DNA of 63,601 bases, counting the filler. It is 5 parts of 5 records of this genome, joined end to end, with 100 filler letters (N's around TTAATTAATTAA, not from the genome) between each part and the next. Parts side by side here need not be neighbours in the genome. Positions count along the whole stretch, not along the records: positions 28,528 to 44,312 come from SRR31156797_4948; 4 more parts are not named here. One strand, written 5' to 3'. Shown in pieces: positions 3,445 to 31,668 of this stretch (positions are counted from its first letter, which is position 1; each line of letters begins with the position of its first letter). The notes under the pieces were generated by a model. It made no database searches. It was not told the DNA's origin and saw only the letters and a program-made list of their open reading frames with translations. The position numbers and the translations under genes were made by a program.

Positions 3445-4326
3445 CTAGTTGTCGCTTAGGATTTCTTTAAACATGGTTTTAAAAAGCAGCTTATCTGAAC
3501 CCAGCAAGTGATCCATATCCACCAATTCTTCATCAGCAGATTCTGGTTCTTCCGGATTATAATACACCAACTGCCAGTCGTTATCTATATACTCCAAAGC
3601 GGTTAAGTTCTCAACCCAATCGCCGGAATTCAAATACATAACCGAACCATGATCATTAGTGATGATTTTTTTTGCAGGCCAATGAATGTGACCACAAATA
3701 GCATATTTATAGTTCTTTTGAATCGCTAAATCGCTCACTGTTTTTTCGAAACGCGTGGTTACTTCTGTCTTTTTAGAAGTCTTTACCATCCGCTTAATAT
3801 CACGGGAAAGTGAAATACGTCTTTGCCCAAACAAAGCCAGAAAACCATTTGCCATTTTATTAATGGCTGTTAGCATTGCATAACCTGTAGCTCCTAGTTT
3901 TGCCAACCATTTTGAATGATGCATCACCACATCAAAAGCATCACCATGAAAAACCCAGCTTTTCTCACCATTCATATCGAGCAACACTTTATTTACGATG
4001 GAAATATTACCCATATTAACACCCACAAAGCGGCGCAGAGCCTCATCATGATTTCCTATAATATAATACACCTTAGTTCCCTGCTCCATCATTTTAATAA
4101 TCTGACGAACAATTTTCAGTTGTGGCTTTGGGAAATAAGATTTAGAGAACTGCCAGATATCGATGATATCTCCGTTTAGCAATAAAGTTTTTGGTTGAAT
4201 AGATTTCAAATAGCCTAATAGCTCTTTTGCTTTACAACTGCGTGTTCCTAGATGTAAGTCAGAAATCACAACAGCTTCAACCTTCCTGGGTGTTCTTTTC
4301 TGATTTGTATTCATTTTCTCCAACAA
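3445..4326 (-). CDS. LpxH/PlcP-family metallophosphoesterase
   Basis: SDLHLG, GDIID, GNHD, HGD, CGHIH and NSGDWVE motifs. Confidence 0.85.
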   Translation of the reverse strand: MLEKMNTNQKRTPRKVEAVVISDLHLGTRSCKAKELLGYLKSIQPKTLLLNGDIIDIWQFSKSYFPKPQLKIVRQIIKMMEQGTKVYYIIGNHDEALRRFVGVNMGNISIVNKVLLDMNGEKSWVFHGDAFDVVMHHSKWLAKLGATGYAMLTAINKMANGFLALFGQRRISLSRDIKRMVKTSKKTEVTTRFEKTVSDLAIQKNYKYAICGHIHWPAKKIITNDHGSVMYLNSGDWVENLTALEYIDNDWQLVYYNPEEPESADEELVDMDHLLGSDKLLFKTMFKEILSDN

Positions 4327-4335
4327 TTATTAGGA

Positions 4336-4343
4336 CAAAACTA
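4336..4343 (-). promoter_or_regulatory. Bacteroidota sigma-A -7 element (TAnnTTTG)
   Basis: TAGTTTTG on minus strand just upstream of the metallophosphoesterase. Confidence 0.5.
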
Positions 4344-4462
4344 GCTGGCAAAAAACAACTAATTGCAAACTGAACTTAAAGAAAATGTAAATAAAAATCC
4401 TGCGTTAAATAATTGTAAACTAGCCCATAGAAGAACTCACAACTTAACGCCTTCACACATCA

Positions 4463-5107
4463 CTAAGCCCAAACAGGTATGGACAGAACATCACGTTTTC
4501 GAAGTAAGTATTGCCAATAGGAATATAAATCGTGGATAAAAACGGGAGATACTCCTTCGGTTTTAACCAAACTACTCCTTCGGGCTATAATAACAGAATG
4601 ATCCGGATTATCCCTGTCTGATGAAATCATATAAGAAGCTTCCAGCTTGAAGAATTCATCATTAAAAACAAAGCCCTTATCATACAAAATCACTTCTATC
4701 CTATATTTACTGCATTGCGATATAAAAGTTTCTAACTCCGCTTCTTTTATACCTTTTAAATCATCCAACACAAGAAAGATGGCTGACAAATTGGAGTGAT
4801 TTGCTATCATCTGTTGCAACAAAGCAGGAGTCGGCAACTTTCTTTTAATCTTATAATGCAGCTTATGCGTTTCGCATATCGAAGCTATTTCGTTGGCAGA
4901 TTCGCCTCCAATCAATAATACTTGGTCATTATACGACACTACTGAGCACAAAAGCACTTCCGTTGAAAAACGGATGCTTCGACTAAAGGGAATAACTTCC
5001 TTATCAGGGATTCCAAATGAATGGTTAATATCCTGCTCTCCTAAGAGTTCCTGAACATTAACGGGACGATCAATTAAATCATGATGATTACACAAAGCAG
5101 ATTCCAT
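4463..5107 (-). CDS. Divergent, truncated PhnW-like (class V aminotransferase fold) protein lacking the PLP lysine
   Basis: YMISSDRD and IIARRSSL...DLYSYWQ align by eye with PhnW YLISSANK and VIAR...DLYDQW; only 214 aa. Confidence 0.55.
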   Translation of the reverse strand: MESALCNHHDLIDRPVNVQELLGEQDINHSFGIPDKEVIPFSRSIRFSTEVLLCSVVSYNDQVLLIGGESANEIASICETHKLHYKIKRKLPTPALLQQMIANHSNLSAIFLVLDDLKGIKEAELETFISQCSKYRIEVILYDKGFVFNDEFFKLEASYMISSDRDNPDHSVIIARRSSLVKTEGVSPVFIHDLYSYWQYLLRKRDVLSIPVWA

Positions 5108-5147
5108 AGCAAAGAACCATTATAAAACATTGTTAAATAATAGTTTG

Positions 5148-5155
5148 CAAAGTTA
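5148..5155 (-). promoter_or_regulatory. Bacteroidota sigma-A -7 element
   Basis: TAACTTTG on minus strand about 40 nt upstream of the ATG at 5107. Confidence 0.5.
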
Positions 5156-5321
5156 CCTTATACACAAACACACATAATTAATAGAATCTTATTCAATTAT
5201 TAATTTAAAGCACTGCATTTCTATCAAATTTGCATGATGCAAGCAAAAGCATAACTTCGTACAAATATTCTATATTCAATAACAAGTAGAAGCATCGATT
5301 TACATTTAAACTCTTAATTTA

Positions 5322-5765
5322 ATGAAATACATATATACACTAATCGTATTAGGCATTGGCTGCTTTTTAGCCATACAGGGAAGTATTAACACGCAACTCA
5401 CTACATATTTAAAACATCCATTACAAGGCGCTTTGGTAAATTTTTTAGTAGGAACACTGGCTTTAATTGGACTTAACTTTATTTTTAAAACACACATGCC
5501 GGATTGGGCTCATGTGAAAACAGCGCCCTGGTATTTGTTTGCCGGAGGTATGCTGGGTGCTATTTTTGTTTCTTCAGTTATCTTTTTTATCCCTAAAATT
5601 GGCGTAACTACTGTTTTAGCAGCCTCCATTGCAGGCCAATTAATTGCAGCTTCTATTGTTGATCATTATGGTTTTTTCGGCATTACAATCCACACCATTA
5701 GCCCGGGAAGAATTATTGGTATTTTATTATTGATGGGTGGCATATTTTTAATTCAGAAGTATTGA
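5322..5765 (+). CDS. DMT-superfamily transporter (YdcZ/DUF606-like)
   Basis: Hydrophobic 147 aa; QGSINTQL, GGMLGAIFV, GQLIAASIVDHYG. Confidence 0.85.
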   Translation: MKYIYTLIVLGIGCFLAIQGSINTQLTTYLKHPLQGALVNFLVGTLALIGLNFIFKTHMPDWAHVKTAPWYLFAGGMLGAIFVSSVIFFIPKIGVTTVLAASIAGQLIAASIVDHYGFFGITIHTISPGRIIGILLLMGGIFLIQKY

Positions 5766-5873
5766 TATTCCAGTTGGCTCAGCTCACTTCTTAATTATTT
5801 TCACTCCTCCATGCAGCACAACTCTTCCATTCTGCATTCTTTATATTAAACCAACATCTTAAATCTACAAAGT

Positions 5874-6371
5874 TTGAAACGAAAACACATAAAAGAGAAA
5901 GAGTTGTATTATGAATATGCAGAAGGTTTGTTTAAAATTTGCATACGCTATTTAAATAATAAAGAAACAGCAGAAGAGATTTTAAATGATGCTTTTATCA
6001 AAATATTTAAGAATTTATCTGCTTTCAAACCTCATTCTTCTAAGAGCTTATTCTTTTGGATGAAGAAAATAATCATTAATGAATGCTTAATGCACATTAG
6101 AAAAACAAACCATCCAAGATTCATTGAAATTAACGACTGGGATGCACCTGAAGAACTCAGTTTAGATTGTGAATACAAAGACCTTTGCAAAATATTTGAC
6201 TTATTACCAATCGGCTACCGAACCGTTTTCAACATGTATGTAATAGATAATTTCTCACATAAAGAAATCGCGGAAAAGTTAGGCATAACAGAAAGCACTT
6301 CTCGCTCTCAACTAACTATGGCAAGAAAACAATTAAAGAAACACTTAAAGACTTTTGGATATGTGGGATAA
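5874..6371 (+). CDS. ECF RNA polymerase sigma factor
   Basis: Region 2 AEEILNDAFIKIF; region 4 LPIGYRTVFNMYVIDNFSHKEIAEKLGITESTSRSQL. Confidence 0.88.
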   Translation: MKRKHIKEKELYYEYAEGLFKICIRYLNNKETAEEILNDAFIKIFKNLSAFKPHSSKSLFFWMKKIIINECLMHIRKTNHPRFIEINDWDAPEELSLDCEYKDLCKIFDLLPIGYRTVFNMYVIDNFSHKEIAEKLGITESTSRSQLTMARKQLKKHLKTFGYVG

Positions 6372-6743: not shown

Positions 6744-7685
6744 ATGAAAAATTATATTAGCGCAGTCTTATTTTTAATCATTCTTACTTCTTGTAACCAG
6801 AATGAAAAAAATGTATTACAAACACAGCATATTGATGCTTATCTCATTATCCCTTCAGAAAATAAAGACAATAGCATAAATTATAACACTGAGCCTATCA
6901 TCAAAACCCTAAAGGGAAAAACCCAAGACATCAATAAAAACATTTATTCAGCTAAATTCATCGATTGGGGAAATCATTTATGGTACCCTGATTACAAACA
7001 GTATAAAAACAACACTGACGTTTTATATAAGAGTACTGGGAAAGAAAGTGAAATGCTACAAAATATGAAATCCATCTATTTTCATGAACAATGGTTTTTA
7101 GACGATGGAATTACTTCTTTCTCAAAAGTAGTAAAAGCATGGTACCCTGCTTTTCAAATCGTTAAAAACAACAAAATAAAAACGCGAACTCCTATGAGTA
7201 TAATTCCCGATAATGATTTAAAGGGTTCACTTCTTAACAATAAAGTATATACAGAAGTATATCTTCTTCATTACGGAGAACGAATTCCTATGGTTTTAGG
7301 TATGAACTATTCCCATTTCTTTAAAACTGTTATAAACAAAATTAAAGATGGAAGTCTCAAAGCTTACGATCCAATATATTTTGTTGATGGAACTAAGAAA
7401 CAATTTAGTATTTATGATATTCAAGAGTACATCAATAAAGATTTAGCAGACACAATGCAGGTTAATAATAATGGACAATATGAAACTGTACTTGTAAGTA
7501 AATATACACTTGATCAATATGATGTGACATCTTTAGTTTTTGAAGAAGATTGGTATTTTAATAAGGAAACGCTTAATATTCATAAAGAGGTAAAAGCACT
7601 GGGCTTTGGCGCATATTTTGAAAATCAACCTATGAAACCAAGTACAGAAAAGCTGGATCTATTATTTGTATTAGTTTTTGACTAA
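6744..7685 (+). CDS. Lipoprotein with two GldN-like segments
   Basis: Lipobox ILTSC; repeated motif FHEQWFLD...KVVKAW and FEEDWYFNKETLNIHKEVKALG resembling GldN/PorN. Confidence 0.5.
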   Translation: MKNYISAVLFLIILTSCNQNEKNVLQTQHIDAYLIIPSENKDNSINYNTEPIIKTLKGKTQDINKNIYSAKFIDWGNHLWYPDYKQYKNNTDVLYKSTGKESEMLQNMKSIYFHEQWFLDDGITSFSKVVKAWYPAFQIVKNNKIKTRTPMSIIPDNDLKGSLLNNKVYTEVYLLHYGERIPMVLGMNYSHFFKTVINKIKDGSLKAYDPIYFVDGTKKQFSIYDIQEYINKDLADTMQVNNNGQYETVLVSKYTLDQYDVTSLVFEEDWYFNKETLNIHKEVKALGFGAYFENQPMKPSTEKLDLLFVLVFD

Positions 7686-28427: not shown

Positions 28428-28527
28428 NNNNNNNNNNNNNNNNNNNNNNNNNNNNNNNNNNNNNNNNNNNNTTAATTAATTAANNNNNNNNNNNNNNNNN
28501 NNNNNNNNNNNNNNNNNNNNNNNNNNN
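28428..28527. other. Artificial contig linker
   Basis: 100-nt N run containing TTAATTAATTAA; GC content and gene content change across it. Confidence 0.97.
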
Positions 28528-28547
28528 GCAGGCATGTGCCAAGCCCA

Positions 28548-28613
28548 ACCGCCTCGTAACAGCCACTCGCCTTGGGTACCGTGTGAGAAGGTGAGTGGCT
28601 AAGACGAGGGGGT
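28548..28613 (+). ncRNA. Putative structured RNA (long hairpin) immediately upstream of the RT; 5'-truncated by contig edge
   Basis: AGCCACTCGCCTT 28561-28573 pairs with AAGGTGAGTGGCT 28588-28600 (13 bp, one G-U); CCTCGT 28552-28557 pairs with ACGAGG 28604-28609; ACC/GGT closes the base. Confidence 0.55.
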
Positions 28614-28620
28614 AAGCGCT

Positions 28621-29829
28621 TTGACCGCTTCTTCGCTTCAACGTTTGGCAACTATCTCAAATATTAGGATGACTTGGAGGGCTTTCTGGCGTTCGTCGAA
28701 AGGTCAGCGAAGTGGAGGCGTTGATGGCGTCACACCGCAGGTGTTTCAGCGCAACGTTGAAAGGCATATCGAGCGTATTCGGCACGAATTGTTGAACGGC
28801 TACAGATTCTCACTGCTACGTGGCTGGCCAGTCGATAAGCCCAATGGCAAGAAACGCATTATCTGTATTCCAACCGTTCAAGATAGAATTGTGCAACGCT
28901 TATTGGCTGCTCACCTAACGGAAAAGGCAGATCGTTTCGGTATTATTAACGATGCTAGCTACGGTTTCGTTCCAACTTCGGGTGGAAAAAAACGTGGTGT
29001 AATAGCGGCAAGGGACAGAGCAATAGCCCTGCGCAAGGATCATCCTTGGGCGTACAAATCTGATATCTCTTCATTCTTTGATCAGATCCCTAGGGATCAA
29101 TTAATTGCTCAGACAGTTTCAAAACTGAGAACACCAAGTTTGAAATCACTGATTAAGGGTGTTGTTTCGTGCGAGCTTGATGAGAGTGACCGATACGTAG
29201 CTCGTATAGCAGCCAGCAATGGCATCGTCAGGGGGTGTGGCGTACGACAGGGTATGCCTTTGTCCCCAATGTTCGCAAATATCATACTGCGGAATTTTGA
29301 CCGCGAAATGATGAATCAAAGTATCCAACTAGTTCGGTATGCTGACGACTTCATTGTTCTCGCCGACAAGGAAAAAGAGTGTCTGAAAGTAGATGCTATA
29401 GCGCGTAAATTGCTGTCGCCGTTAGGTCTGGAGTTGCCTCCCCTCGGACATACGAAAACGTCGATTTCTTGCCCTAGTGAAGAGATTGATTTTCTTGGCC
29501 TCGCCTTAGCTCCGAATAGCCTTGGATCTTACGAACTTTTGATCACTGAAAAACAACTGGCTAAAGTTGCGAGATCCTTAAATCAATTGAAGGATGTTGA
29601 CCAACTTGTTCACAAGAGGATTGACATTTCGAATCTTGTTAGGACTGTCGAGAATAAAATCGGAGGATATTTGGCAGCATACCGACAAGCAAACAACGTT
29701 GAGGAACTACAGATAGTACTGGAACATTCGCGTAGCGAAATTCTGCGATCAGTATATGTGAAGGCATTTGGAGAAAAGGCAGTTAGCAGTCTTTCACGCA
29801 ATATGCGGAAGGTGCTTTGTTTAGGCTGA
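28621..29829 (+). CDS. Stand-alone group II intron-like reverse transcriptase (YADD), no endonuclease domain
   Basis: RT0 SGGVDGVT; KPNGKKRIICIPTVQDRIVQR; SYGF; DISSFFDQI; GVRQGMPLSPMFANI; RYADDF; IDFLG; about 100-aa thumb; TTG start preceded by GAGGGGGT. Confidence 0.93.
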   Translation: MTASSLQRLATISNIRMTWRAFWRSSKGQRSGGVDGVTPQVFQRNVERHIERIRHELLNGYRFSLLRGWPVDKPNGKKRIICIPTVQDRIVQRLLAAHLTEKADRFGIINDASYGFVPTSGGKKRGVIAARDRAIALRKDHPWAYKSDISSFFDQIPRDQLIAQTVSKLRTPSLKSLIKGVVSCELDESDRYVARIAASNGIVRGCGVRQGMPLSPMFANIILRNFDREMMNQSIQLVRYADDFIVLADKEKECLKVDAIARKLLSPLGLELPPLGHTKTSISCPSEEIDFLGLALAPNSLGSYELLITEKQLAKVARSLNQLKDVDQLVHKRIDISNLVRTVENKIGGYLAAYRQANNVEELQIVLEHSRSEILRSVYVKAFGEKAVSSLSRNMRKVLCLG

Positions 29830-29868
29830 GGCTGGCTACAAAGATAATAAAATAAACGCTGAATTGAT

Positions 29869-30792
29869 TTACTTTGAATAATCGCGATTGGGACGATTTT
29901 TTTCTCCGGCTGAGATTTCATCCGATTCCAGGAAGTCGGCGAGGCTTTGGGTCGCGCTGCCCGGTTTCAGCGGCTTCTGCTGCGACGGATCGGGCGCCCA
30001 GGCTGTCAGATAAATAACCTCGAAGGTGGCCGGGATGCGGCCGTCGGTATCGGCGAAGTTTTGCCGGTACCGTTCCGCCGCCGCCGCGATTGTGGTGCGC
30101 CGGGTGAAACCTTTGCGGCGCTGAAGCGCGGCGTTGCTTTCGCCCATGGCGCGCAAATCGGTCATCAGGTTGAGCGGATCGGGATAGCTTACGGTGATGG
30201 TATCGGAATCGGCGACCGGCAGGGCGAAGCCGGCACGCAGCAAAAGGTTGCCGGCGTCCCGCACGGCGGCCATCGGCGACGTGCGCAGGCTCAGGCCGCC
30301 TTCGATATCGGATTCGGCTTCGGCAAGGCTTTGCCGCAACTCCTGGACCGTCTGCCCGCCCAGCATGGCGCCGAGAAACAACCCGTCGGGTTTGAGCGCC
30401 CGGCGGATCTGTATCAGCGCGCCGGGCAGGTCATTGACCCAGTGCAGGTTCAGGCAACTTAGGATCAGATCAAAGCTGGCGTCTGCGAAGGGAAGGGCTT
30501 CTTCGTCCGCGGCCAGGGCCGGGCCGTCGGTTTGCGCGATCATGCCCGACGACAGATCTGATTCGAAAAGGGTGTCGATGCCGCCGCGCCCCGCCAGAAG
30601 GCCGCGCAGGGTGCCGGTGGCGGCGCCGAGATCCAAGGCGATAGGAAATTCCCGGCGAACGTCGTCCAGGCGATCCAGCAACCGCTCGCCGATTTCGCGG
30701 CGGAGGAAATCATAATCTTTGAATCCGGGCGCGGCGCGGTCGCGGTGCAAACGCACGGCACGGCGGTCGAAGACGGAAATTTCGTCGCTCAT
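29869..30792 (-). CDS. SAM-dependent methyltransferase (NDUFAF5/BioC-like alphaproteobacterial family)
   Basis: FDRRAVRLHRDRAA; LDLGAATG; LHWVNDLPG; ATFEVIYLTAWAP; divergent from comF. Confidence 0.88.
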   Translation of the reverse strand: MSDEISVFDRRAVRLHRDRAAPGFKDYDFLRREIGERLLDRLDDVRREFPIALDLGAATGTLRGLLAGRGGIDTLFESDLSSGMIAQTDGPALAADEEALPFADASFDLILSCLNLHWVNDLPGALIQIRRALKPDGLFLGAMLGGQTVQELRQSLAEAESDIEGGLSLRTSPMAAVRDAGNLLLRAGFALPVADSDTITVSYPDPLNLMTDLRAMGESNAALQRRKGFTRRTTIAAAAERYRQNFADTDGRIPATFEVIYLTAWAPDPSQQKPLKPGSATQSLADFLESDEISAGEKNRPNRDYSK

Positions 30793-30891
30793 GGCGTCTT
30801 CCGGTTCGGGTCCGGCCCGGTTGGATCAACATTTCTGCCGCTCATATGGTATCAATAACATCACGGCGCGAAGTCGGAAGCGGAAAAAAGC

Positions 30892-31668
30892 ATGCCGGAG
30901 GAAAATCCGTCCCGCCAGCAAAACGCGCGCATCGGTGCCGCCGGAAAACTTCTGACGTCGGCGCTCGACGTTTTGCTGCCGCATCGCTGCATGGCCTGCG
31001 GCACCATCGTCGAAGCCGCCGGCCTGTTGTGCGAAGACTGCTGGCCCGGTATCGAATTCATCGGACCGCCCATATGCGAAGCCTGCGGCCTACCGTTCGA
31101 ATACGACATCGGCGAAGGCGCCCTGTGCGGTGCCTGTGCGCGCCAGACGCCGGCATTTACGCGAGCCCGCGGCGCAGTTCTTTACAACGCCGCCAGCCGA
31201 CACCTGGTGCTGGCTTACAAACATGGCGATCGGACCGAAAACGCGGCCGCCTTCGCACGTTGGATGATGCGAGCCGGGGCCGATCTGATAGTCGACGCCG
31301 ATATGGTGGTTCCGGTGCCGCTTCATTGGTCGCGGCTGTTTGCGAGGCGCTACAACCAGGCCGCCCTGTTGGCCCAGGTCATCGCCCGCAATGCCGGCCT
31401 GCCTTTTGAACCGGATCTGTTGAGGCGGTGCCGGCGCACCCCGTCGCAAGGATTTCTCGGCCGGTCGGCCCGCCGCCGCAATGTCGCCGGATCCTTTGTG
31501 GTGCCGCCGCACGCCGGGAACGACGTAAGCGGACGGCGTGTGCTGTTGGTCGACGACGTCATGACGACGGGGGCGACGGTCGATTCCTGTGCCCGGGCGC
31601 TTTTGCGCGGCGGCGCCGCGGCCATCGACGTTCTAACATTTGCGCGAGTTGCCGTTCCGGCCCTTTAG
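30892..31668 (+). CDS. comF: ComF family protein (double zinc ribbon plus PRTase domain)
   Basis: Four CxxC pairs; RRYNQA; LLVDDVMTTGAT. Confidence 0.9.
   Translation: MPEENPSRQQNARIGAAGKLLTSALDVLLPHRCMACGTIVEAAGLLCEDCWPGIEFIGPPICEACGLPFEYDIGEGALCGACARQTPAFTRARGAVLYNAASRHLVLAYKHGDRTENAAAFARWMMRAGADLIVDADMVVPVPLHWSRLFARRYNQAALLAQVIARNAGLPFEPDLLRRCRRTPSQGFLGRSARRRNVAGSFVVPPHAGNDVSGRRVLLVDDVMTTGATVDSCARALLRGGAAAIDVLTFARVAVPAL

Follow-up and report, generated by a model that had tools for sequence, protein, structure and literature searches.

A free-standing group II-like reverse transcriptase with a repeat-flanked, stop-free unit: a candidate for RNA-templated synthesis of a concatemeric gene

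In most relatives of the reverse transcriptase (RT) described here, the gene closes an ordered series of parts: promoter, repeat r1, stop-free unit, repeat r2, hairpin, RT. From this arrangement we propose that a terminally redundant RNA may be copied by strand transfer into concatemers that would encode an endless membrane protein. Such a system would resemble DRT2/neo while using an RT of a different lineage, and we give the proposal an even chance of being correct.

The window (the whole stretch of DNA analysed, 63,601 nucleotides) consists of five joined contigs, with an artificial N...TTAATTAATTAA...N spacer separating neighbours. The contig edge to the left of the RT, noted in the first-pass annotation, is genuine: the spacer occupies 28428-28527, and GC content jumps there from 36% in the contig ending on the left to 62% in the contig from 28528. 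The features around the RT are as follows.

28428-28527, no strand: artificial, non-biological spacer (N runs 28428-28471 and 28484-28527 flanking TTAATTAATTAA)
28528-28557, + strand: final 30 nt of r2, the RT-proximal repeat copy (X1 contig overlaps; alignment with the r2 end of locus L081)
28548-28613, + strand: conserved hairpin lying past r2 and ahead of the RT start (folding, covariation, position in relatives)
28621-29829, + strand: RT ORF, 402 aa, TTG start (open frame, Pfam, HMM and PDB matches)
29830-29868, no strand: 39-nt spacer, right end of the low-GC island (GC profile; Rfam without group II domain V/VI)
29869-30792, - strand: convergent host SAM-dependent methyltransferase, 307 aa (Pfam Methyltransf_11, 1.3e-15)

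Judged from the layout of relatives, what the window retains is probably the right-hand two thirds of the element, which is compact and spans ~1.9 kb. The assembly broke inside r2, so that only the last 30 nt of this repeat, the hairpin and the RT are left; most of the upstream cassette seen in relatives is absent, in keeping with the earlier suspicion that the contig edge had cut off a partner element. The RT stretch has a GC content of 41-49% vs 58-68% to its right, forming a low-GC island that begins at the contig edge. The ORF coordinates confirm that the RT stop (29829) is 39 nt away from that of the convergent methyltransferase, as reported. Because neighbouring genes vary between loci, the methyltransferase is flanking sequence and lies outside the element.

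The reverse transcriptase and its surroundings

The first-pass annotation described an intact 402-aa group II-like RT with a YADD active site and no fused domain. Both points held: the frame is open over the full ORF, the active site reads RYADD, and Pfam returned RVT_1 alone (4.2e-30, residues 72-295), with no second domain. Across 26 relatives no change is seen at R239, Y240, D242 or D243, nor at G33 and D35 of the N-terminal GxDG motif; A241 shows conservation of at least 90%. The QGxxLSP motif of group II type is also present.

The RT was placed in a class by its HMM and PDB scores. The group II model TIGR04416 aligned with residues 18-376 over model positions 4-347 of 353 (E 7e-52), at a score of 176.7 bits that lies below the curated equivalog cut-off of 300. 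The best solved relatives in the PDB were Cas6-RT-Cas1 (1e-45), the GsI-IIC RT (2e-44) and G2L4 (7e-38). RT_UG17 was the best named DRT model in PADLOC (3.6e-38, 129.5 bits, 301 of 429 model positions); PADLOC sets no threshold for it, and its score is below that of the group II model (130 vs 177 bits). The DRT2 structure 9c0i matched at 2e-8 over only ~80 residues, and the Drt2 model NF041746 gave 37 bits vs a cut-off of 390. Retron RTs carry NAxxH and VTG motifs. Inspection of the translation by eye agreed with the earlier statement that both are absent from the RT; the retron RT model NF038233 scored 67 bits vs a cut-off of 235, and retron RT structures matched at 5e-14 or worse. The enzyme is a free-standing, group II-like RT that is apparently neither intron-encoded nor Cas-linked.

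The family comprises 147 proteins at E≤1e-10 and 241 clusters of 50% identity at E≤1e-30. Members occur in Alpha-, Beta- and Gammaproteobacteria, on plasmids and on a few viral contigs; a phage collection gave no match to the RT. In the nearest available genome (G001), which is kin to another contig of the window, RT and flank were both unmatched with the queries used. A FastTree phylogeny built from family members alone has two major clades.

Similarity to group II and RT-Cas1 proteins, together with the missing left flank of the contig, would suit a group II intron that has been truncated, or a CRISPR-associated RT, with partners located past the edge. To this reading we give practically no credence. 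The earlier claim that domain V/VI is missing near the RT stands: Rfam (E≤10, both strands) found no group II intron domains in 28528-31000, where only two chance-level matches were returned, and neither DV nor DVI was detected in 60 kb from 15 related loci (E≤1). What Rfam did report at those 15 loci was a tRNA and, in L152, C4/isrK-like RNAs downstream of the RT. Clustering of neighbours at 80 genome loci yielded no recurrent gene other than the repeat-flanked unit described below. No CRISPR array was found at these loci, and self-BLAST gave a single self-match at almost every one of them. Gene content 3' of the RT is locus-specific, and the sub-threshold TIGR04416 score (177 bits, under 300) also argues against an intron-encoded enzyme.

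A conserved hairpin and a repeat cassette

The 93 nt at 28528-28620, said in the first-pass annotation to fold into a long hairpin, do so with an MFE of -46.9 kcal/mol (z = -4.77), and none of 200 shuffles was as stable. An inner stem of 13 bp (28561-28573 with 28588-28600) closes a 14-nt loop (28574-28587) that opens with GGG. The outer stem pairs the end of r2 (28552-28557) with the Shine-Dalgarno region of the RT (28604-28609), whose Shine-Dalgarno sequence, GAGGGGG, is located at 28606-28612. Relatives share this upstream structure, and it covaries, a check that the annotation had suggested: compensatory changes were found at 7 of 10 hairpin pairs, and 0 of 500 shuffles reached the covariation score. 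At 44 of 59 loci the best hairpin begins 0-20 nt past r2. A covariance model of the hairpin (R1) recovered only its 11 seeds and L034 in 0.98 Mb, because the hairpin is too short and too varied. A conserved, structured cis RNA exists upstream of the RT as predicted; the hairpin forms only the 3' end of a larger cassette.

The body of that cassette is seen in relatives. A pair of direct repeats lies upstream of the RT at 59 of 75 genome loci and 38 of 52 metagenome loci, and also at all three viral-contig loci tested and on one finished Acinetobacter pittii plasmid. The repeats are 54-223 nt long, 93-100% identical and 273-453 nt apart, and they show concerted evolution; in one 3.6-Mb genome r was found exactly twice. 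In both major branches of the family tree the cassette is found with the RT, and at one locus (L076) an IS element sits between cassette and RT. The pair was absent from 13 of 75 genome and 13 of 52 metagenome loci with enough upstream sequence, and from one finished Acetobacter plasmid that carries the RT, so in places the RT is kept without the cassette. Some loci retain the RT with a single r or none.

The spacing of the repeats follows a simple rule. Raw BLAST spacings were divisible by 3 at 54 of 59 genome loci (p = 1e-20) and at all 38 metagenome loci (p = 2e-17); once repeat boundaries had been refined, this held for 96 of 97 loci, the exception being L072 (spacing 518). Among distinct modal spacings, 31 of 33 are multiples of 3. 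Exactly one forward frame is circularly free of stops at 53 of 54 genome loci, all 38 metagenome loci and four corrected loci (95 of 96), with L024 lacking an open circular frame. On the reverse strand a stop-free circular frame was present at 12 of 54 and 4 of 38 loci, and in shuffles at 4.3%.

Evidence for such a repeat in the window came from sequencing run X1, a possible source of the window's DNA, whose contigs are not independent of it. Position 28528 is the exact end of one X1 contig. Another, of 127 nt, overlaps the window only over 28528-28557 and continues leftward, and a 308-nt contig shares 28528-28557 and then diverges rightward. The 30-mer 28528-28557, which has no second copy within the window, therefore has two different right-hand continuations in X1, as expected at the end of such a repeat. 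Contig depths, which are not copy numbers, were 85 for the 127-nt piece vs 55 and 48, values compatible with two repeat copies. Assuming the identity of these contigs, r would be ~127 nt and the interior ~248 nt, giving a spacing of ~375 nt (125 codons).

A possible mechanism and its alternatives

The steps that follow are our reading of sequence patterns. A single transcript would start at r1, cover r2 and the hairpin, and continue into the RT gene. The RT would bind the hairpin beside its own start codon and initiate cDNA at or near the 3' end of r2. On reaching the 5' end of the RNA, the cDNA would have a 3' terminus complementary to r1, which could anneal to r2 of the same or another RNA, much as a retroviral R region does, and a further round would follow. 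The product would be head-to-tail cDNA concatemers or a unit-length circle. Because the spacing is in whole codons and the unit is stop-free when circularised, this product would hold an endless reading frame of repeated units, each with a membrane helix. Expression of the frame might harm the membrane and halt growth, most likely as an anti-phage response. Homology-driven strand transfer would seem to require RNase H, a domain absent from the RT.

Coding signals of the unit are weak. It carries a Shine-Dalgarno site, a start codon and a peptide resembling a membrane helix, and a hydrophobic 19-aa window (KD≥1.6) occurs in the open frame of 71 of 91 units vs 15 of 182 other frames. pN/pS was 0.74 in the open frame vs 0.91 and 0.99 in the shifted frames, and 0.36-0.58 for the closest pairs. 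Substitutions by codon position follow a slight 3>1>2 order, and GC3 is not elevated. Nine unit peptides gave nothing above cut-off in Pfam and no matches (0/9) in PADLOC at E≤0.1, SLATT included.

The position of the start codon differs between clades. Units of the beta/gamma clade have their Shine-Dalgarno site and ATG past the helix, so a linear message would yield only a peptide of 41-83 aa that excludes it. In the alpha clades, to which the window's nearest relatives belong, the start codon precedes the helix and a protein of 90-130 aa can be read from the DNA; there a linear message suffices for a small membrane protein, and concatenation is not needed. The alpha arrangement would fit an ordinary two-gene operon encoding a small membrane protein together with the RT, in which the repeats are duplicated RNA elements (RT-binding sites or regulatory leaders), one per gene, no concatenation occurs, and the RT has some other product or substrate. 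The weak coding signals, the loci that have the RT with one r or none, and the near-invariant structured RNA that forms block A of r in the beta/gamma clade, which suits a binding site, all lend this operon some support. We nevertheless consider it unlikely, at a level that still deserves weight. It gives no reason for multiple-of-three spacing at 96 of 97 loci over 31 lengths, and the position of the helix upstream of the beta/gamma start codon also speaks against it. Against the concatemer model, a linear ORF starting inside r1 would also keep the spacing divisible by 3.

Comparison of the two repeat copies bears on the same choice. Frame breaks are confined to r2, with 1-nt deletions in L020, L039, L041 and L044 and stops in L013, L014 and L049, whereas r1, which an operon would treat as a leader, always stays open in the frame of the ORF. 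In L039 the 94 nt of r2 past the frameshift, untranslated in an operon, are still identical to r1, and the operon reading does not account for them. Nor does it expect the distribution of promoters. With a promoter called at 8 or more of 12 matches, a sigma-70-like promoter whose -10 element ends 3-16 nt before r1 was found at 20 of 95 loci, compared with 3 of 95 before r2 and 3% of random sites. This placement would start transcription at r1, and r2 would have no promoter of its own.

The same logic could instead yield a unit-length circle (a retrozyme-like circular RNA, or a circular cDNA or dsDNA) read repeatedly by ribosomes or RNA polymerase. A circular stop-free frame with whole-codon spacing fits a circle equally well, and both copies hold the conserved structured RNA r. 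This version seems to us quite improbable: the cassettes of 15 loci contained no known self-cleaving ribozyme or other Rfam family (E≤1), the promoter is placed so that the RNA would begin where r1 begins and not within it, and r1 and r2 differ at a conserved patch.

That patch also touches on a further possibility. In gapped alignments r1 and r2 show 0-10 mismatches per pair, concentrated in a fixed patch of 1-4 nt common to related species. The base is A in r2 at 55 of 115 mismatches and A in r1 at 21 of 115, and r2 has an A-rich patch. Diversity-generating retroelements (DGRs) have the order repeat, small ORF, repeat, structured spacer, RT, and the cassette shares this order of parts. With two repeats around a small basic ORF, followed by a structured spacer and the RT, the layout recalls VR-avd-TR-RT. 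This likeness and the excess of A in r2 (55 vs 21) count in favour of a DGR-like or gene-conversion device, in which r2 would serve as template repeat and its cDNA would overwrite r1, keeping the copies alike. Such a device is extremely improbable, and we dismissed it because the differences form a fixed patch in related species and are hence not hypervariable. In addition, r1 coincides with a transcription start instead of closing a target gene at its 3' end; the RT carries QGxxLSP of group II type, and group II and CRISPR RTs are its nearest relatives; and spacing divisible by 3 is not predicted. Adenine-wide mutagenesis, a target gene and a DGR-type RT are all absent. The conserved 1-4 nt difference also falls outside what the concatemer model accounts for.

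Relation to known systems and significance

The closest functional analogy is DRT2. As set out in the available text of Tang et al. 2024 (PMC11100668), the DRT2 (UG2)/neo system uses rolling-circle reverse transcription of an upstream ncRNA to make a stop-less concatemeric gene. Here too there is a lone RT gene with an upstream cis RNA and without a separate effector gene. The unit, seen in relatives but not in the window, likewise consists of whole codons, is stop-free over the junction and has its own ribosome-binding site and start codon, and one clade has a genomic copy from which no more than a harmless fragment would be made. The RT lineage differs (NF041746 37 vs 390 bits; structure 2e-8), as does the length of the unit (273-453 nt vs 120 in DRT2). 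The jump would rely here on 54-223 nt of DNA-encoded terminal redundancy, compared with the 3-nt ACA-1/ACA-2 motifs of DRT2, and the predicted product, unlike that of DRT2, has membrane helices. Of the first-pass proposal that the RT works with a cis-encoded RNA, the pairing itself stood; a simple short template gave way to concatemer synthesis of the DRT2/neo type as the nearest parallel.

Strand transfer through the R region (strong-stop transfer) is a retroviral step, and pararetroviral pregenomic RNAs are terminally redundant. As with retroviral R, one copy of the repeat would form the very 5' terminus of the RNA and a second would lie internally or on the 3' side, which would let cDNA made on the first anneal to the second. 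Unlike in retroviruses, the RT gene lies outside the repeats, RNase H domain, LTR and integration machinery are absent, and the proposed outcome is a concatemeric gene and not a provirus. Group II intron RTs bind DIVa, a high-affinity, self-regulating site at the ribosome-binding site and start codon of the RT. The hairpin occupies the equivalent position and its outer stem pairs the Shine-Dalgarno sequence; binding of the RT to it is putative, and unlike group II DIVa it has no surrounding ribozyme.

DRT10/UG17, in the accessible part of a preprint by Sanchez-Nieto et al. 2026, comprises an RT and a SLATT protein, works with an upstream structured ncRNA and makes 7-nt tandem repeats. UG17 is the best named PADLOC DRT model for our RT, and an upstream structured RNA combined with a (predicted) membrane effector is common to both. 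It differs in that the SLATT partner is absent (0/9 unit peptides; no other conserved neighbour).

The RT sequence itself points to the G2L lineage of free-standing group II intron-like RTs, which includes G2L4 (Simon & Zimmerly 2008, PMC2602772; Toro & Nisa-Martinez 2014, PMC4244168; Gonzalez-Delgado et al. 2021, PMC8632793). It is free-standing, has RT0-7 and an X/thumb region near those of group II RTs, occurs in Proteobacteria, and combines group II-like RT sequence with the lack of any intron RNA structure. Direct repeats or a unit ORF are not mentioned for any G2L clade in the available text of those three papers. One alternative is a DNA repair polymerase like G2L4, without a dedicated RNA and with an upstream cassette unrelated to RT function. 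G2L4 RTs are free-standing, group II-like and of similar size, G2L4 structures match the family profile at 7e-38, and the accessible portion of a preprint by Park et al. 2022 indicates that a YADD group II RT is also capable of end joining. We hold this alternative to be very improbable, as the cassette accompanies the RT in each of the two major clades, the hairpin directly adjoins the RT start codon, and the locus forms a low-GC island that occurs on plasmids and among varying neighbours. G2L4 has a YIDD active site and a role in double-strand break repair; this defining YIDD is replaced here by RYADD, and the dedicated upstream cassette is a further difference.

No description of the cassette was found in the literature searched. 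Toro et al. are said to have reported 'four additional clades' in 2019. Preprints on 'ART' and UG27 were dismissed as matches, since their available text concerns other RT families. Many contigs, the window's included, begin inside the repeat because the element breaks short-read assemblies, and the unit ORF is unannotated in finished records; together these could explain why the element has been overlooked.

Looking to its broader meaning, the element may represent a second, independent form of RNA-templated gene creation, in which a domesticated group II intron RT would use strand transfer of the retroviral kind between the terminal repeats (54-223 nt) of its leader RNA to make concatemeric or circular DNA, whose endless frame would encode a poly-transmembrane protein that has no linear genomic gene. 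We lean slightly against so complete a picture. If it is true, neo-type gene synthesis arose at least twice, in unrelated RT lineages, and long homology would offer a simpler jump mechanism distinct from that of DRT2. Bacterial RTs would also be tied mechanistically to retroviral strand transfer, and R-region transfer would gain a bacterial counterpart. G2L4 aside, we know of no job for the free-standing group II-like RTs, and the sequence pattern provides a sharp, falsifiable hypothesis for a large RT family. The making of extrachromosomal genes would then recur among bacterial RTs as a strategy instead of being peculiar to DRT2.

Setting and family of the reverse transcriptase

The window joins five unrelated contigs with GC contents of 0.36, 0.62, 0.40, 0.42 and 0.29, values so unlike one another that the stretch is a mixture of several organisms; the nearest genome in the collection, G001, is related to one of the contigs that lack the locus studied here. 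The reverse transcriptase (RT) locus lies at the very start of the second contig (28528-44312), with the following features.

About 28428, 44313, 51581 and 57402, strand not applicable: N/TTAATTAATTAA spacers between contigs
28621-29829, + strand: RT, intact ORF of 402 aa with a TTG start (relatives have ATG at the same position)
29869-30792, - strand: Methyltransf_11 methyltransferase, convergent to the RT and 39 nt from its ORF

The first-pass annotation had described an intact stand-alone RT of 402 aa lacking any fusion, 39 nt from a convergent methyltransferase gene and with no group II domain V/VI nearby. Its observation is correct on every point that could be tested: the ORF is open and RVT_1 is its sole Pfam domain, coordinates and the Methyltransf_11 match agree on the gap, and Rfam gives no group II intron domain near the RT. 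The GC content of the RT stretch (41-49%) differs from that of the DNA to its right (58-68%), indicating that the RT lies on a foreign island ending just past its stop codon. Two genes to the right, a 258-aa protein (30892-31668, + strand) with a DZR_2 double zinc ribbon (6.8e-17) and a phosphoribosyltransferase domain belongs to ordinary host flank.

The group II RT/maturase model is matched over nearly its full length, but with 177 bits where the cut-off is 300. When the family profile was compared with solved structures, the best match was to Cas6-RT-Cas1 (1e-45), followed by group II intron RTs (2e-44) and G2L4 (7e-38), while DRT2, DRT9-like proteins, retron RTs and AbiK matched far more weakly (7e-12 or worse). 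The top named PADLOC DRT model was RT_UG17, at 130 bits. The active site had been read as YADD rather than the YIDD of G2L4, and RYADD indeed proved invariant across the family; because YIDD is the G2L4 hallmark according to PMC4244168 and the Park 2022 preprint, G2L4 identity is ruled out. By definition, the RT belongs to the G2L lineage, whose members are free-standing group II-like RTs.

The family comprises 147 proteins at E<=1e-10 in a 90%-identity collection (best relative 70% identical) and 241 50%-identity clusters at E<=1e-30, nearly all of about 400 aa and free-standing. Hosts are Alpha-, Beta- and Gammaproteobacteria, and members reside on five large plasmids of Acinetobacter and Acetobacter. 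Five of 2.9 million viral contigs carry the family; a search of a phage genome collection found none.

A repeat pair upstream of the gene

Among 80 genome loci surveyed for neighbours there was no recurrent flanking gene. Most had a same-strand 'ORF' just upstream of the RT whose first and last 30-50 residues were an identical peptide, and the DNA basis of these repeated ends is a pair of direct repeats, r1 (RT-distal) and r2 (RT-proximal). Below, the unit is the stretch from r1 start to r2 start, and the cassette consists of promoter, r1, unit, r2 and hairpin. One repeat pair (54-223 nt, 93.5-100% identical) was present in 59 of the 75 genome loci with at least 300 nt upstream, with r2 ending 28-76 nt before the RT start. 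Start-to-start spacing ranged from 273 to 517 nt and was a multiple of 3 in 54/59 (binomial p = 1e-20); four of the five exceptions reflect 3-8 misaligned bases at a repeat edge, the true offsets being 363, 402, 411 and 339. The pattern was replicated in 80 independent metagenome loci: the cassette was found in 38 of the 52 with at least 600 nt upstream, always at a multiple of 3 (38/38, p = 2e-17). One metagenome locus, L156, was set aside, its sole match being 79.6% identical and ending 360 nt from the RT. All three viral-contig loci tested carry the cassette (spacings 402, 453 and 381), as does a finished A. pittii plasmid (399). Overall, the offset measured at the 5' block of the repeat is divisible by 3 in 96/97 loci, as are 31 of 33 distinct modal spacings. 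Two loci are misfits: L072 has a spacing of 518, and L024 lacks the open frame described below.

The repeat occurs only twice in the 3.6-Mb genome carrying locus L053. Repeats r1 and r2 show concerted evolution, changes between species being present in both. At L076 a further repeat pair (4079-5971; 108 nt, spacing 273) is cut off from the RT by an IS element/transposase gene, a natural disruption of the element. The Methylophaga locus L027 has no repeat upstream of the RT and a 79-nt direct repeat downstream (7420-7651; 98.7% identical, spacing 153, or 51 codons).

Within the window, the first 30 nt of the RT contig are single copy. The public sequencing run X1 (k=31 contigs) contains the RT-contig stretch, and as it is possibly the source of the window DNA it does not count as independent evidence. 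The end of one X1 contig coincides with 28528, another of 127 nt overlaps 28528-28557 only and extends leftward, and a 308-nt contig has the same 30 nt and diverges rightward at 28557. With one contig continuing and one diverging at this point, the 30-mer is followed on its right by two different sequences, the pattern predicted where a two-copy repeat ends. On the assumption that the 127-nt contig represents the collapsed repeat and that the 308-nt contig spans r1 end to r2 start, we infer from lengths alone an interior of 248 nt and a spacing of 375 nt (125 codons); the nearest relatives have spacings of 357-375. Assembly breaks at the repeat are common, with L002 and L011 beginning inside r1 and five genome contigs and 28/80 metagenome contigs ending no more than a few hundred nt from the RT start.

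A sigma-70-like promoter (at least 8/12 matches) with its -10 hexamer ending 3-16 nt before r1 was detected at 20/95 loci, compared with 3/95 before r2 and 16/475 at random sites under the same criterion. Transcription therefore probably begins close to base 1 of r1 and probably continues from the cassette into the RT gene. The 93 nt preceding the RT had been reported to fold into a long hairpin, which the calculated energy bears out (-46.9 kcal/mol, z = -4.77). This hairpin lies directly 3' of r2; across loci the best hairpin begins 0-20 nt after r2 in 44/59, and its loop begins GGG in 25 of those 44. The proposal of a structured upstream RNA likewise stood up to a covariation analysis of homologous loci. 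In an alignment of 11 sequences including the window, 7/10 stem pairs showed compensatory changes and 90.8% of cells were paired; the covariation score was reached by 0/500 shuffles, and slid partners scored far lower. Covariation of this stem was also seen in 21 beta/gamma loci. Within the window, the final 6 nt of r2 form the outer stem together with the Shine-Dalgarno region of the RT, an arrangement resembling the DIVa site of group II introns.

On a FastTree phylogeny of 140 RTs, the cassette occurs in both major clades. Cassette-free loci are dispersed over the tree (22 changes for 24 rows; shuffles did as well), often beside near-identical RTs that have it, which points to repeated loss, for example by r1 x r2 recombination, or to collapse in assembly. 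Recombination is invoked because several cassette-free loci keep one repeat. The pair is truly missing from at least one finished plasmid. Three loci without the pair (L042, L059 and L060) retain, some 90 nt upstream of the RT, the hairpin and a single repeat copy in a form nearly identical to r2 of L038 and L055, as expected from either route. Loci L039, L041 and L044 (Paraburkholderia kururiensis, Burkholderia sp. and B. stagnalis) have nearly identical cassettes and RTs (unit 99%) and share two flanking genes (clusters c15 and c16), suggesting that a slightly larger island recently spread by horizontal transfer. Directly downstream of the cassette-bearing RT of L152, positions 2240-2443 match C4 antisense RNA (62.5 bits, exceeding the gathering score) and, more weakly, isrK and c4-a1b1. 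Such RNAs serve P1/P7-type phages in immunity, which suggests that the locus lies in a prophage or phage-plasmid.

The frame of the unit and the asymmetry of its repeats

Read as a circle, the unit has exactly one stop-free forward frame in 53/54 genome loci, 38/38 metagenome loci and the four corrected loci. Reverse-strand frames were open in 12/54 and 4/38, mononucleotide shuffles in 4.3%, and random same-length windows, mostly ordinary genes, in 51%. The open frame encodes a hydrophobic 19-residue window (KD>=1.6) in 71/91 units, against 15/182 for the other two frames and 17% for residue shuffles. For close pairs, the open frame gave a pN/pS of 0.36-0.58 and the shifted frames about 1-1.6; the corresponding values across 17 pairs were 0.74 versus 0.91 and 0.99. 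Against coding, substitutions by codon position follow 3>1>2 just slightly, and GC3 is not raised. Unit peptides matched no Pfam or PADLOC family, and the unit lacks gene annotation on two finished plasmids.

In the alpha clades, which include the window's nearest relatives (L081, L001, L002 and L003), r1 is followed after 20-70 nt by a Shine-Dalgarno sequence and ATG, an arginine-rich N-terminus sharing an RRAP-like motif, the helix and r2, with a stop codon 3-120 nt beyond the r2 end. This order is consistent with a plain operon that encodes a small membrane protein and the RT. In the beta/gamma clade the Shine-Dalgarno sequence and ATG come after the helix, about 40 nt upstream of r2, so that the linear message specifies only a 41-83 aa peptide without it; there the helix would be translated only if units were joined head to tail.

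The plain operon also leaves unexplained the whole-codon spacing and the asymmetry between the repeats, and we consider it unlikely. Frame breaks are confined to r2, as 1-nt deletions (L020, L039, L041 and L044) or stops near its end (L013, L014 and L049), and r1 is open in every case. In L039 the 94 nt of r2 past the frameshift remain identical to r1, so repeat identity is kept at the nucleic-acid level rather than for coding. The exception to this identity is one conserved patch of 1-4 nt, about 45-60 nt into long repeats, between two conserved hairpins of the nearly invariant 5' block. It is A-rich in r2 (AA, AAA, AAC or ACA) and CC, GTG or GGG in r1; at r1/r2 mismatches, A stands in r2 at 55/115 and in r1 at 21/115. 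Common to different species, the patch was seen in L013, L015, L020, L029, L037, L039, L048, L050, L053 and others, and it may be the start or jump point of cDNA synthesis.

Concatemeric copying as a candidate explanation

We propose that the RT would start near r2 and copy the leader RNA as far as its 5' end, whereupon cDNA of r1 would pair with r2 and synthesis would go round again. This would yield concatemers, or a circle, with a sense strand that reads as an endless ORF built from helix-containing repeats. The repeats at the junctions would be r1-type and hence always open; only the last would be r2-type, supplying the stop. The features to be accounted for are repeat identity at the nucleotide level, r1 at the RNA 5' end, r2 at the RT-associated hairpin, whole-codon spacing, a circle-open frame with breaks tolerated only in r2, and a conserved helix that precedes the start codon in one clade. 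The proposed copying covers all of these; every step is a proposal, and we judge it evenly balanced whether the account is right. A variant with a circle as product follows the same logic, and we think it quite improbable.

According to PMC11100668, DRT2 makes neo by this kind of round-and-round copying. The proposed endless ORF from an upstream RNA resembles neo, whereas the RT is of another lineage and the proposed jump is by long homology. In a full-text search of main article texts, Toro et al. 2019 not among them, repeats or a unit ORF adjoining a G2L RT were not described. A defence role for the RT and its cassette is plausible, given the island and plasmid context, the recombinases and a type ISP restriction enzyme that neighbour some loci, and the location of 25% of G2L RTs near defence genes, as stated in PMC8632793.
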